From assembly GCF_006345805.1 (NCBI RefSeq), contig NC_043007.1, forward strand, positions 2,604,001 through 2,668,000: a stretch of 64,000 nt of DNA, read 5' to 3'. Within the stretch, counting starts at the first letter, position 1. Each line of letters opens with the position of its first letter. Below the pieces are notes generated by a model. It had not been told where the DNA came from. It worked only from the letters and a program-made list of their open reading frames with translations, and ran no database searches. The position numbers were made by a program, and so were the translations under genes. Below are positions 1,900 through 22,949 of this stretch, one piece after another. The DNA is from Octopus sinensis (lineage: Eukaryota).

Positions 1900-3226
1900 C
1901 AAAGCTGTCAGGAAATATTGAAACAACAGTGTACTTTGCTAATATAATGCCACTCACTCCGTTACCAATTCGTCAGCAGATTATTAAGCATCGAAAGAAG
2001 GATAATTTAAGTATTGGGTCTATTGCAAATATTTTTAACAAGTCAAAAAGTGTTGTTCACGGTATTCTTAAGGTCTACGATGATTGTGGTTCGTGTGCAG
2101 CAAGAAAGTTTACAGGTAGGCCAAGAAAAACGACCAACAGAGAAGATCGTGCTATGGTAAAGTTGGTTAAAAGGGACAGATTTAAAACTGCTGCTGCTGT
2201 TTCTCGGGAAATGAGCATTGCACTGAAGAAAACTTTATCTTGAAAAACTGTGTCTCGTCGTTTAGTTGAACATGACCAAGAGCACCGGCAGTGAAGCCAC
2301 TGATCAGCTCCAATAATAAAAAGTGTCGTCTTACCTTTGCAACCGAACAGGTGTTGTGGTCTCAAGAAAAAAGGCAAACGATGCATTTCAGTGATGAATC
2401 TAAGTTTATGTTATTTGACTCAGATGGGAAAAGGTATGTTTGTCGAAAACTAGATGAAAAAGTGTCGCCTAAATGCCTTAAGACTAGTGTTACATTCAGT
2501 GGAGGAAGTACCATGGTTTGGGGGATGATATCTGGAGATGGTGTGGGCCCTTTGGTGCGATTACATGGAAAGTTAAATGAAGGAGTTTATAAACAACTTG
2601 TAAAAGATCATGTCTTTCCTGTGCTGAGAAATTCAACTAAGCGACCACCCATGTTCATGCAGGACAACGCCCCATGTCACAAGGCTAAGGTGGTCATGAA
2701 CTTCCTTAAAGCTGAAAAGGTTATTGTTATGGATTGGCCTGCTCAAAGCCCAGATCTCAATCCTATTGCAAATGTGTGGAATATTCTAGGAGACGGTGCG
2801 AAAGCCAGAAATCCTAAAACAACCGAGCATCTATGGAATGCTCTTCAGGAAGGAAAAAATAAGATCACCCAGCAAGAAATAAAAAATTTTATTTCCTCAT
2901 GCAGTCGAAGATGTCAAAGTATGATTGAAGCTAAAGGGCTTCACACTAAATATTAAATAATTCCAGTATTCTCTGGCATTTTTGATTATTTTGTTATTTT
3001 TTCGACCGTTCTGATAATTTTGGCCGCCATGGGTTTTGCAGTAAATCACTAAATCATCCATAACTTTTGTATTATCCTCTCAAATTACACCAAAATCTCA
3101 GACAATAACAATAAATATTGTATTTATTCTCTGTGAAAATTATAGAATATAAAACAACTGTGATAAAAAATTATACTTACTTTTCTGACGAAAACAATGT
3201 CGTTCTGAACATTTTGGTCGCAACTG
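1900..3226 (+). mobile_element. Tc1 DNA transposon; right TIR intact, left TIR not found
   Basis: Ends ...GGTCGCAACTG followed by TA at 3226; inner direct repeat 3007-3027 resembles outer 3201-3221; left boundary approximate. Confidence 0.8.
1947..2956 (+). pseudogene. Tc1-family (DD34E) transposase, disrupted
   Basis: HTH region with GRPRKTT; FSDESKF, QDNAPCH and WPAQSPDLNPIANVW (catalytic E replaced by A at D+35); in-frame TGA at 2241-2243 and a frameshift near 2285. Confidence 0.93.
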
Positions 3227-3295
3227 TATATACATACATATATATATATGTGTATATATATATATATATTATATATATATATAATATATATATAT

Positions 3296-3328
<33 letters not shown>

Positions 3329-3430
3329 TATATATATATATACACATATATATATATGTATGTATATACAGTTGCGACCAAATGTTCAGAACGACATTGT
3401 TTTCGTCAGAAAAGTAAGTATAATTTTTAT
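3165..3430. repeat. Fold-back inverted duplication of the Tc1 right end plus flank, centred on (TA)n
   Basis: 3369-3428 (CAGTTGCGACCAAATGTTCAGAACGAC...) is the reverse complement of ~3166-3226, and the adjacent TATACATACATA flank is mirrored too. Confidence 0.9.
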
Positions 3431-3960: not shown

Positions 3961-4061
<101 letters not shown>

Positions 4062-4474
4062 GCATTCAGTGGTATACAGATTCACATTTGATTTGGTGTC
4101 AGACTAATATAACAATGGCGATCACTAACTCACTCCCATGAGCACATGTCCTGTATCTTGCAACCAATTATTAAATATGTCGATACGTGTGTGTATGTAC
4201 ACACACACACGCACACACACATATATATATATATATAATTAATAATATCAAAGTGTAATCAAAAAATTAGAAATTTCCATTGCCAGTGGCCTACCTTGTA
4301 AAAATTTAGTCAATAGACTATATATTATTCATATAGATATAGTGTACGTTTAAACACATAAGAGACATCCATCATAAGACTCCTTGCACGCTAGAGAGAA
4401 CAGTTAAATTCCACACCACTGTTAGGGATAAAATTTCGAAGGGAATGAAAAATAAAAGCATTTACCATCTAACT

Positions 4475-4546
4475 CCTAGACCAATGGTTTCAGAAGTTTT
4501 TTTTAGCAAATAATATAATTTGTTAGGCGAAGTCTTCTTCAGCAGG
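4475..4546 (-). ncRNA. Type I hammerhead ribozyme motif (helix II partly mutated)
   Basis: Minus strand reads CCTG CTGAAGA AGAC...TTCT GAAA CCATTGG TC TAGG. Confidence 0.7.
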
Positions 4547-5143
4547 TACACCTTAGATTAAATATATACACACGAGGCAATCCAGTATATGACCCGTGTT
4601 TAAACATTCTGATTTTTCAAATCTACCGCAGAAGCGCAGCTCCTTGTCGGTGATATATAAATATGCCGGCTTTTCAATGAGAAAATTAGGCAGAGAAAAA
4701 ATTTCAAATAATTAATAATATCAAAGGGTAATCAGAAATATTAGAAATTTCCATTACCAGTGGCCTAGCTTGTAAAAGTTTAGTCAATAGACTATATATT
4801 ATTCATATAAATACAGTGTACATTTAAATGAGTCCTATGGTGGATACCTCTTATGTGTTTAAATGTACACTGTATTTATATGAATAATATATAGTCTATT
4901 GACTAAATTCTTACACGCTAGGCCACTTGTAATGGAAATTTCAAATATTACTAATTACGCTTTGATATTATTAATTATTGATAATTTGTTCTCTGGATAA
5001 TTTTCGAAGTGAAAAGCCGGCATATATATACAATGCCAACAATAAGCTGCGCTTGCGCAGTAGATTTCAGAAATTAGAATGTATAAGCACGGGTCATATA
5101 CTGGATTGTCTCGTGTATATATATATATTTAATCTAAGGTGTA

Positions 5144-5209
5144 CCTGCTGAAGAAGACTTCTAGCAATTCATTTTATTTGGTAAAAATGTCTGAAACCAT
5201 TGGTCCAGG
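5144..5209 (+). ncRNA. Type I hammerhead ribozyme
   Basis: Helix I CCTG/CAGG; core CTGAAGA 5148-5154; helix II AGAC/GTCT; GAAA 5193-5196; helix III CCA-T-TGG; GUC cleavage predicted after 5205. Confidence 0.88.
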
Positions 5210-6507
5210 AGTTAGATGGTAAATGTTTTTATTTTTCATTCCCCTCGAAATTTTATCCCTAATATTGATTTGGAATTTAACTGTCGTCTCTAGCGGCGTG
5301 CAAGGAGTCCTATGATGGATGTCTCTTGTGTGTTTAAATGTACACTGTATATAATATATATATATATATAATATATATATATATGTGTGTTTGTGTGTAT
5401 GTATATTTATACGCTTATATAATATATAAATATATGCATATATACATATATATATGTGTGTGTGTATGTGTGTGTCTGTGTGTGTGTGTCTGTGTGTGTG
5501 TGCGTGTGTGTGTGTGCGTTTGTGATTGTGTGTGTCGTAAATGAATTTCTGAATTTTTCACAGCATCAAGTGGTAAAATGTGTTACCATCTTCTCACCTT
5601 GCGCCCTTACTTTCATAATGGCGGAAATTATACCTTTTAAGCTTTCGAAAGCATTCTGCAATTTATTTGCACTCACCCATTTAAAAACACAATGGTGTGT
5701 ACTTTTCTGCTACTTAACAATATATTGGCTATTGGTCTTCCTTTGTCTTCTCCTTTTTCTTCACTATTATTTCATTCCATCCTCTTTGTTATGACACGAG
5801 TATGTAGTTTATAGTTTGAAATGGAAACTGCGAATTGAAAGAGACGTAAGTGCGTGAGAGATAAAAGACTGATCAAAATATGTTTAGTTTAAGAATACCT
5901 GTATTTGCTTTAATAGTACATCTATTTTCCAATAACATTCCCAAAGACTGGATATAAACCTCAAGAGAGAATAAATCAATTTTTTTATAAAATTTACAAA
6001 ATTCCCTTGCTAAGATATTTCCTGACAGAAATAGAGGCATTTAGACACATTCGTAAGGGAAGATTATATACGTATTATATCGAAAGCAGCTTATTACTGG
6101 TATTTATTTATGACGAATTCTATAAACGAATAAAGGAATGATAATTTCAGCTACAGCATATTTAGAAATCACACATTTAAAACCAAGACAAAATTACTAC
6201 TTCATCTGGTGTGAGAATTCATATGGTAACGCAGTAATTTATGATCCATCTACCAGAATAAAGAAACGTGTGTAGAAGAAACACTTCAGCAAGCGGGCGT
6301 GTATGGCTTATTCAATATTATTCCTTACCAAATTTTATAAAGCATTTTGCTCTAGGTGACACATATATACACGCAACTGCACACACACACACATACACAC
6401 GTACGCACGTGCGCACGCACTCACACACACACTCATAGATTCATGCATACACATATACATATGTGTGCGTATGCATCTATGTATACACACACGCACCCTC
6501 TCTCTCT

Positions 6508-20912: not shown

Positions 20913-21794
20913 GGGATTTGAATGCAGAATGTTAAGAAAGAGAACAAATATTTTCAAAGTATTTTATCCGAGTATCTAACATTAATCACAAGTCAAAGTA
21001 TTTTCAGAAAACGCAGTTAACCGATAATATGGACCCCAGTACTTGACAAAAAAATGTTTATTGATTGCGGAAGTGTGAAAGTTAAAGCTTGCCTGGGTTT
21101 CCATGTAATTCTTCAAATATATCGTCATACTACCTTTATTAGTATTCATAAAAGAAACACTAGAAATAAACTACGATTGATGAAACCGTTTCACATTTAC
21201 AATATTTTTTCTGCTTTTCTTCCGACATAAGACATCAATACATCTTCACAGTATTTTTCCTCTTTAGTTAATTTTTCTAAAAGTTTTATTATCTGCTCTG
21301 AGTCGAGAAGATGTAGTGTTTCTAGTTACAAAAGTGTTATATATAGTTGTCAGTGTCTAGCAAAGAAGGAAGTAAATTCACGGCAAATTACACATTCTTT
21401 GTTGTTATGGAATGTGTGATAGTTTAAAAAATGCATATTGTCCGTTAATCCAATTATGCTATGTTCTTTGTTTTATGCAAATGATAGAACATCAATAAAT
21501 AAGAATAACATGAAAAAACAAATAGCTAAAATACAAAATAAATCTTATTTGAAATGGTTATAAACTTTACAAATATCATAATGGAAAGATCATTAAATAG
21601 AGACACTGAGTCTCTTCTAAAACTGTTCTAAAACTTGACAAATATTTCGGCGTACATTTCACGCTCCGACAGACACATAAATACATTCTAAAAAATGTAT
21701 ACGTTACGTATGTATGTGTACGTACGCACGCATGTACGTGTGGATGTATGCACGCATTTATGTACGTATATATTCTGTATGTATGTATGTACAT

Positions 21795-22949
21795 ATGCAA
21801 CACATTTTGAATGCATTCTCTGATGTTTGCACTGCCTTAGGATTGACAGTCAATCTCAAGAAAACTGTTGTCATGCATCAACCTGCCCCTGGTAAGCACT
21901 ATAGTGTACCACATATCTATGTGAATGGTAAACGACTTGATGTAGTCGATCAGATTGCCTACCTGGGAAGCAGTATTAATAGATATGGCAATGTGGATGA
22001 TGAAATTCCATATAGAATTAGGAAAGCAAGTGTTGCTTTCGGAAGGCTAGAAAAGCGCCTCTGGATTCGGCGAGAAATATGCAGAAAGACAAAGATAAAG
22101 GTGTACAAGGCATGTGTGCTCCCTTCTCTTCTCTATGCTTGCAAGACGTGGGTCACATATCGATACCACCTTAAACATCTGGAACGTTTCCATCAGATGT
22201 GCCTCAGACGGATCTATAGCATTAAGTGGAAGGACTGCATCAGTGATCTTGAAATACTCGAAGGCTCTCGGTGTGAAAGTATAGAAGCTCTTGTGTTAAA
22301 GCAAAGGCTCAGATGGAGTGGTCATCTGGTCAGAATGAAGGATTTAAGGATGCCAAAACAACTCTTTTATGGAGAGTTAGCTAAAGGAGAACGACCTCCA
22401 CATAAACCAAAAAAGAGGTATAAGGACTTGCTGAAGGCTTCCTTAAGAGATGCTTGCATCTCTCCTGACACATGGGAAGGCATAGCTATTGATAGTAGCA
22501 GGTGGAGAAGGGGTGTGCATGAGGGGACAGCCATGTTTGAGAAATCTCGAGTTGCACATGAGAAAGTAAGGAGGGATGTCAGGAAGGGCATCGCTGTTAC
22601 ACTTCCAGAAGGGAAGGGTCTTCCTTTGATTCTGACATGCAATATCTGTGCAAGACCCTGCCTCAGTAAAGCTGGACTCATGAGTCATCTTCGTAGTCAT
22701 AAAACGAGACAAATGAGTGACAACCTGGCCACTGGTGGTGGTGTAACACTCCATACTAATTATATCTGTCGGGCATGCGGAAAAGAGTGTAATTCGGCAG
22801 GAGGACTTAAACGACATGCAAAGGTACATGAAGCCCAGTTACAACTACAGCCGGCTATTAACGGTAAGGGTTCTAGTTGCCAATTTTGTACAAGACATTG
22901 TAGATCTTTAGCTGGGCTAAATAGTCACATTCGATCACAGCACCAATAA
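21795..22949 (+). CDS. RTE LINE ORF C-terminal part (end of RT, thumb region, three C2H2 zinc fingers); open but 5'-truncated
   Basis: GLTVNLKKT, YLGS, RLRWSGHLVRM, PKQLFYGEL; CNIC..HLRSH, CRAC..HAKVH, CQFC..HIRSQH; the first ~27 aa of the track ORF are microsatellite flank. Confidence 0.9.
   Translation: MQHILNAFSDVCTALGLTVNLKKTVVMHQPAPGKHYSVPHIYVNGKRLDVVDQIAYLGSSINRYGNVDDEIPYRIRKASVAFGRLEKRLWIRREICRKTKIKVYKACVLPSLLYACKTWVTYRYHLKHLERFHQMCLRRIYSIKWKDCISDLEILEGSRCESIEALVLKQRLRWSGHLVRMKDLRMPKQLFYGELAKGERPPHKPKKRYKDLLKASLRDACISPDTWEGIAIDSSRWRRGVHEGTAMFEKSRVAHEKVRRDVRKGIAVTLPEGKGLPLILTCNICARPCLSKAGLMSHLRSHKTRQMSDNLATGGGVTLHTNYICRACGKECNSAGGLKRHAKVHEAQLQLQPAINGKGSSCQFCTRHCRSLAGLNSHIRSQHQ

Follow-up and report, generated by a model that had tools for sequence, protein, structure and literature searches.

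The 64,000-nt window of the Octopus sinensis genome analysed here (contig NC_043007.1) harbours a short locus in which a unit of about 474 nt runs beyond its own length and meets an inverted copy of itself between two (TA)n tracts. The question arises as to what kind of element this locus represents and how it was inserted. The way in which Penelope-like elements generate tandem and inverted insertions is described as an open problem (PMC8557442; here and below, statements on cited work refer to the available excerpts of these papers).

A repeat finder and self-BLAST confirmed the repeat periods of 473 and 475 nt and the inversion near 4829 that a preceding sequence-only reading had reported (Table 1). 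In the left arm, the first 120 nt are repeated with a period of 473–474 nt (4235–4265 vs. 4708–4738, spacing 473; 4262–4354 vs. 4736–4828, spacing 474, 92 % identity), and the right arm has a period of 475 nt (4827–4893 vs. 5302–5368, 81 % identity). Inverted matches connect 4559–4828 with 4858–5127 (87 %), 4263–4385 with 4827–4949 and 4389–4501 with 5183–5295; the two arms are 86 % identical. The left end of the element lies at 4235–4237, being ambiguous against the adjoining (TA)n. As also stated in the sequence-only reading, (TA)n flanks the element and no meaningful ORF is present: no ATG-initiated ORF of at least 35 aa was found inside, and the sole listed frame begins at 5338 and extends across the microsatellite. 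ARAGORN detected no tRNA gene in the element and hence no tRNA-like head of a tRNA-derived SINE (decayed heads can escape ARAGORN). By ORF scan and GC content (0.31 for window positions 4001–6000), the element shows the non-coding, low-GC constitution without LTR features expected of a retrozyme. Since release of a 474-nt monomer demands two ribozymes on one strand and the locus has one per strand, it cannot itself release such a monomer.

Table 1. Features of the two-armed element in the window (P and D, proximal and distal fixed 3′ sites)
Feature	Position	Strand	Remarks
Left arm	4235–4828	-	594 nt, 1.25 units, 5′-truncated, ends at D (4235); repeat finder, self-BLAST
Right arm	about 4829–5350	+	about 521 nt, 1.1 units, 5′-truncated, ends at P (about 5350)
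Head-to-head junction of both 5′ ends	4827–4829	.	possible microhomology of up to 2 nt (AA)
About 100-nt tail between P and D	4235–4334	-	at the left end only of this locus
Type I hammerhead motif	5133–5216	+	intact core 5148–5154, GAAA 5193–5196, near-palindromic stem III, cleavage predicted past 5205
Second type I hammerhead motif	4468–4557	-	core 4542–4536, predicted cut between 4479 and 4478
(TA)n left flank	4221–4234	.	presumed half of the target microsatellite
(TA)n right flank	5351–5384	.	presumed other half of the target microsatellite

Elsewhere in the window, a perfect 55-nt inverted repeat (3213–3267 and 3328–3382) surrounds a (TA)n tract and possibly represents a small MITE or another two-armed insertion. 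Two open frames on the plus strand were also observed, one of 226 aa with a DDE_3 transposase domain (2276–2956; E 1.6e-12) and one of 422 aa (21681–22949) in which a C2H2 zinc finger is weakly matched towards the end.

Rfam yielded no hammerhead match by gathering threshold or E-value, and below the cut-off only hairpin-type matches arising from the inversion; moreover, the hammerhead fold of the plus copy is not the minimum-energy structure (constrained −8.4 vs. MFE −15.8 kcal/mol; z −0.04). The motifs were therefore called from conserved core and stems, by which one type I motif per arm was identified, in agreement with the one hammerhead per unit proposed before. In the plus copy, stem I pairs CCTG (5144–5147) with CAGG (5206–5209) and is extended by TCTAA (5133–5137) with TTAGA (5212–5216), the core reads CTGAAGA, stem II pairs 5155–5158 with 5189–5192, and GTC occupies 5203–5205; the position of this motif supports the earlier prediction of cleavage after GUC 5205. 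The minus copy is weakened, stem I containing a G-U pair and the fourth pair of stem II being broken. Helix III is near-palindromic, with a self-duplex of −10.3 kcal/mol, and palindromic helices III have been described for hammerhead motifs acting as dimers (PMC4209133). Among 124 copies of the repeat family to which the unit belongs (family 1, see below), pattern and pairing counts revealed an intact core in 66. A T at the C3 core position (unit phase 287) occurs in 34 of the 124 (about 28 %), often accompanied by a perfectly palindromic helix III that is shorter by 1 nt, which suggests a subfamily that may have spread with an altered ribozyme. A U3-A8 hammerhead variant is on record (PMC4209133); A8 is found in only 8 of these 34 copies. 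Compensatory changes are almost lacking across the 124 copies, so that the pairing counts provide no independent sign of structure conservation, and conservation is 94 % in the core columns vs. a median of 93 % elsewhere in the unit. Each family 1 unit bears a predicted type I hammerhead, the motif by which a retrozyme is recognized.

Exact matches to a 22-mer of the unit number 1,449 in the 2.72-Gb assembly, against none for its reversed control; the repeat is therefore not due to chance, and family 1 comprises well over a thousand copies. Three samples (one ranked by similarity and two picked by exact pattern) provided 335 distinct arms from 208 loci. They were mapped on the natural left arm together with a column-count profile, positions being given as phases of the 474-nt unit with the predicted cut after phase 350. 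Removed beforehand were 52 duplicate arms (396 to 344) and a further nine (344 to 335; below 45 bits, plus two repeated arms of L263), as well as four duplicate loci. Whole two-armed insertions duplicated together with their flanks were observed in tandem at a distance of 955 nt (L263:2968-4512) and in L330 and L332, 8 Mb apart on C1; both cases may reflect later duplication or assembly artefacts.

The 3′ ends of the 335 arms are bimodal: 143 are located at site P (phase about 20, window position 5350), 143 at site D (phase 121, window position 4235) and 49 elsewhere. The two sites are about 100 nt apart and lie about 144 nt (P) and about 245 nt (D) past the cut site. Typically, (TA)n follows both types of end; a strict 12-nt TA test was passed by 75 of 143 D ends, 52 of 143 P ends (where the alignment absorbs part of the TA) and 10 of the 49 others. 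The 5′ ends, in contrast to the 3′ ends, are scattered, the median arm length being 183 nt with 15 of 137 arms longer than one unit (first pattern sample). Family 1 thereby displays the fixed 3′ ends, 5′ truncation and optional tail of non-autonomous Penelope-like elements as well as their microsatellite or AT-rich target. Partial tandem and inverted 5′-truncated copies are represented by 115 head-to-head pairs among the 208 loci; one arm only was present at 36 of 86 loci in one sample. The Penelope insertion architecture supposed at the outset is borne out by these pairs and by the 286 arms that end at P or D. The accompanying idea of greater-than-unit-length, circularly permuted copies held in part: the template exceeded one unit (17 of 226 arms) and the 5′ ends vary, but the 3′ ends are confined to two sites.

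The longest of the 335 arms measures 846 nt. Without exception, long arms continue from phase 1 into phase 474 and never into an ORF, and unpaired arms have no body in common in their upstream flanks; the non-coding unit was therefore copied from a template that either exceeded one unit or was closed. The same observations bear on the notion that the copies are 5′-truncated pLTRs, the terminal repeats of an autonomous Penelope-like element. In its favour, a hammerhead, a tail, inversion and a microsatellite target likewise characterize pLTRs (PMC8557442, PMC4209133), and the search for a parent element was small. Nevertheless, every sufficiently long arm, up to 846 nt, wraps from unit start to unit end, no body is shared upstream of the unpaired arms, and a second family (family 2, see below) forms pure arrays, which renders a pLTR origin very improbable.

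The two 3′ sites are not used independently within an insertion. Of the 115 head-to-head pairs, 82 had both ends classifiable (33 with an unclassified end were left out), and 78 of these combine one P end with one D end (p 3.8e-19 vs. independent choice), the individual samples contributing 11/11, 37/39 and 30/32. The window locus is itself such a pair, and the left arm can belong to either class (P 46, D 32). This asymmetry is at odds with a DNA element of the MITE or foldback type having the arms as terminal inverted repeats, for which the long inverted repeats and (TA)n flanks might speak: the outer ends are offset by about 100 nt in 78 of 82 pairs, 36 of 86 loci of one sample are one-armed and the inner ends are variable. 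The end mapping contradicts terminal inverted repeats that match each other and are fixed on either side, leaving a DNA transposon hardly credible. Fixed ends, which the sequence-only reading had tied to such a transposon, were indeed found on the 3′ side, but as one-sided reverse-transcription start sites rather than as terminal inverted repeats.

Both arms of an insertion appear to stem from the same template variant. Polymorphic positions agree between the arms of one insertion in 321 of 348 cases, as compared to 56 % between insertions. Rare variants are shared to 13.5 % from arm to arm, 11.6 % from lap to lap and 1.9 % between insertions, with divergences of 0.097, 0.093 and 0.170, respectively. 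The window arms are a weak case of this sharing, having 7 of 60 minority variants in common at a divergence of 0.123. The lengths of the arms, by contrast with their variants, are independent: the 5′ positions of paired arms are uncorrelated (rho 0.01), and neither arm is nested in its partner in 44 of 78 pairs (family 2, 9 of 29). Junction overlaps of 1–3 nt occur in 47 of the 115 alignments, part of which chance extension may explain.

An older proposal is self-priming (PMC3846280), by which one arm would be copied from the other on fold-back, the asymmetric tail being attributed to endonuclease resolution (PMC8557442). Variants common to both arms, the palindromic or hairpin-embedded position of some junctions (L085, L237, L320) and the nesting of one arm in its partner in 34 of 78 pairs would suit this model. 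The 44 pairs without nesting, together with several pairs devoid of any overlap (L079, L097, L140), mean that simple fold-back copying fails, an argument that counts against this simple form and not against an antisense template longer than both arms. Overall, we consider fold-back priming quite improbable. One P and one D end, a shared variant, independent lengths and outward-facing tails are together what two simultaneous primings by one complex would be expected to leave behind. The window locus is a dispersed copy of a non-coding 474-nt hammerhead-motif family with Penelope-type ends, probably inserted into (TA)n by a borrowed Penelope-like reverse transcriptase (RT)-endonuclease that primed two cDNAs at once. 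The reading that fits best names the element a non-autonomous Penelope-type element (non-LTR retrozyme) that likely inserts by two simultaneous target-primed reverse transcriptions performed by an enzyme dimer.

A second and younger hammerhead family with a unit of 535 nt (family 2) was encountered during the search for a helper, at L265:5764-6875 (G000:C6:12735263-12736374), and a 31-mer from it has 1,418 exact genome matches. In 46 loci (L332 was dropped from all counts), its 78 arms end at D (38), P (37) or elsewhere (3), and all 29 classifiable pairs out of 32 combine P with D; the tail is about 128 nt long. Ten arms exceed two units, with lengths of up to 5 and about 17 units (L311), and one spans 9,242 nt. 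In L335, nine minority variants recur in all four full laps as well as in the opposite arm. The laps of L315 and L318 are heterogeneous, with differences common to neighbouring laps. The nearest relative of a lap resides in the same insertion in 32 cases and in another insertion in 39, with 17 ties (n = 88). Homology of the two families is not significant: the motifs keep a colinear order between core and D end, yet their score of 98.5 falls within that of shuffled sequences (89 ± 9).

The first ribozyme is read through in 67 of 226 arms of the two pattern-picked sets, and 17 of the 226 exceed one unit; a cut linear monomer is therefore excluded as the only template. Of the 69 arms at risk in the first pattern sample, 16 have 5′ ends at phases 344–361 vs. 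6.4 expected (p 4.5e-4), and three arms reaching the second cut site stopped there. The second sample did not replicate this excess at the cut site (13 of 62 vs. 9.7 expected, p 0.16), and family 2 has four stops in 94 encounters vs. 2.5 expected; the pile-up was accordingly discarded as proof of in vivo cleavage. Ten starts in the pooled set are at phases 345–350, upstream of the cut, and a second 5′ cluster inside stem II suggests an effect of structure or microhomology. None of the 335 family 1 arms reaches two full units and only seven hold two ribozymes on one strand, which would permit monomer release, the sample being a fraction of the family.

Chances are about even that the template was a circle, the alternative being an uncleaved multimer. 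In its explicit form, this alternative retains the element and the double priming and replaces the circle by a multimeric linear RNA that was transcribed from a tandem copy and left uncleaved in part or entirely. It would accommodate the absence of family 1 arms of two units (longest 846 nt, n = 335), the pile-up with the three arrested arms, the U3 core of 34 of 124 copies, which may not cut, and the report that RNA left unprocessed serves as the main substrate (PMC11167929). The heterogeneous laps of family 2 also belong here, as a single circle does not predict them without later exchange. On the other hand, the pile-up is confined to one sample and has no counterpart in family 2, and ten of the pooled starts lie upstream of the cut. 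Tandem ribozymes of such type cleave better as dimers (PMC7229834), and long uncleaved transcripts are therefore less expected; moreover, if neither a circle nor template jumps were involved, arrays could presumably do no more than shrink. A linear multimer is, on balance, unlikely.

Three raw RNA runs (X21–X23; species uncertain, about 6 % of each covered) contain the unit only as fragments inside other transcripts, 96–97 % continuing into other sequence. Full-unit RNA was not detected in these runs of uncertain species, depth being near zero in mid-unit and molecule ends not piled up. One abundant transcript in X21–X23 comprises a short piece of the unit (window positions 4840–4875) followed by unrelated sequence (128–307 reads per run) and likely is a host transcript with an embedded copy. 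An abundant loose RNA end with three genome matches was dismissed as helper candidate, since the unit does not adjoin it in the one locus inspected.

From these data, insertion may be pictured as follows. A rare copy that carries a pair of ribozymes on the same strand would be transcribed and self-cleave as a ribozyme dimer, and ligation would close the 474-nt monomer into a circle whose lone ribozyme stays quiet; alternatively, an uncleaved multimer would serve. An enzyme dimer would bind the RNA near the tail and nick both (TA)n strands. One strand would then prime at P and the other at D, a mechanism deduced from the observed genomic pattern. Each run halts at its own variable point and can cross ribozyme and unit boundary, as observed. 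Finally, the cDNA ends may join via 1–3 nt of microhomology and be filled in, which would leave the tails outside and the heads together.

Several of these steps have a precedent in a lizard Penelope-like protein (PMC11167929). This protein introduces nicks into either strand of AT-rich DNA and extends both, and it initiates reverse transcription at two positions within the RNA, which are located downstream of the hammerhead and delimit the genomic tail. It is predicted to form a dimer, and ribozyme cleavage is not required. In the light of this system, we read P and D as start sites. The strands did not differ in start site (PMC11167929); this neutrality fits a random assignment of P and D and does not show the coupling of one each. 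Carrying the proposal further, we tentatively raise the possibility that Penelope-type integration might be an obligate two-polymerase event, in which a dimer would prime both target strands on a single circular ribozyme RNA, one subunit per fixed start site, and roll round the circle.

Candidate helpers are encoded in the genome: intact ORFs of 762–883 aa combining RT and GIY-YIG domains are located at L265:1721-4063, L267:1689-3974, L268:3040-5688 and L266:3245-5569. The commonest RT and GIY-YIG family, which we take to be Neptune-like from its cysteine-rich linker, has copies ending at (TA)n and a hammerhead-like stretch with a TTGATAA core in the 3′ region (L179:2719). Among the matches listed, it seems to end at two points separated by only about 30 nt, the mapping being swamped by (TA)n. 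The unit matched none of 30 GIY-YIG loci (of 5,029 candidates) and, beyond (TA)n, none of six longer regions. No protein remnant was found, and the RT and GIY-YIG ORF of an autonomous Penelope-like element is absent from the element. Further hammerhead-like cores with palindromic helix III were noticed near other Penelope-like loci at L266:6521 (+), L266:6916 (−) and L269:4667 (+).

The kind of element is already known, the one-end tail has been noted qualitatively (PMC8557442, PMC3846280), and repeat databases may already hold family 1. In the excerpts of the literature on Penelope, hammerheads, octopus and twin priming, no description was found of family 1, of a tail of 100–128 nt or of a near-obligate count of one P and one D end on one template variant; the supplements of PMC4209133 and PMC7229834 may list cephalopod motifs. 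The short and numerous copies are of value in that both priming sites are recorded within one insertion, yielding a quantitative rule (one P and one D end, the same template variant, independent lengths) that is testable in the in vitro system of PMC11167929. If the two-polymerase reading were true, tail, head-to-head inversion and tandem repeats would be explained by one mechanism, and animal retrozyme circles would be direct substrates of Penelope-like enzymes, a link that has so far consisted of co-occurrence and sequence similarity (10.64898/2026.07.22.740005).

Metazoan non-LTR retrozymes (PMC7229834; 10.64898/2026.07.22.740005) resemble family 1 in their non-coding, low-GC unit with one type I hammerhead, their partial tandem copies and their co-occurrence with Penelope-like elements. 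The unit of 474 nt is larger than the 170–400 nt given in PMC7229834 and falls within the 51–972 nt of 10.64898/2026.07.22.740005. Unlike these retrozymes, family 1 has no arm of at least two units (n = 335), is mostly two-armed, inverted and shorter than a dimer, and is known here from genome copies; the excerpts of both papers contain no mapping of insertion ends and no tails. The non-autonomous Chlamys elements, e.g., MRC1, are likewise non-autonomous and pLTR-forming, with head-to-tail copies and microsatellite targets; in contrast to family 1, they belong to green algae and most are without a canonical hammerhead. At the 3′ end they resemble their helpers (PMC8557442), a likeness for which the 30 GIY-YIG loci and six longer regions compared gave no sign in family 1.

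In LINE-1 twin priming, two primings from the two sides of the target lead to an inverted insertion. There, the second primer uses variable internal sites and the parts cover separate stretches, whereas the insertions described here use a fixed second site and the sequences of their arms often overlap.

The closest correspondence is to endonuclease-bearing Penelope-like elements (Penelope/Poseidon, Neptune), which share 5′ truncation, partial tandem arrangement, head-to-head inversion and an optional one-end 3′ tail (PMC8557442, PMC3846280, PMC11167929), as well as a minimal hammerhead that lies upstream of the start sites and has a palindromic helix III, and an AT-rich or microsatellite target. 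Family 1 differs in being without the RT-endonuclease ORF and in its tail of about 100 nt (family 2, about 128 nt) vs. 30–40 nt described for Penelope-like elements. The tail, often one-ended according to these papers, is one-ended here as a near-rule (78/82 and 29/29). As judged from its genomic copies, the element works like a non-autonomous Penelope-like element and shows the testable structural features of one.
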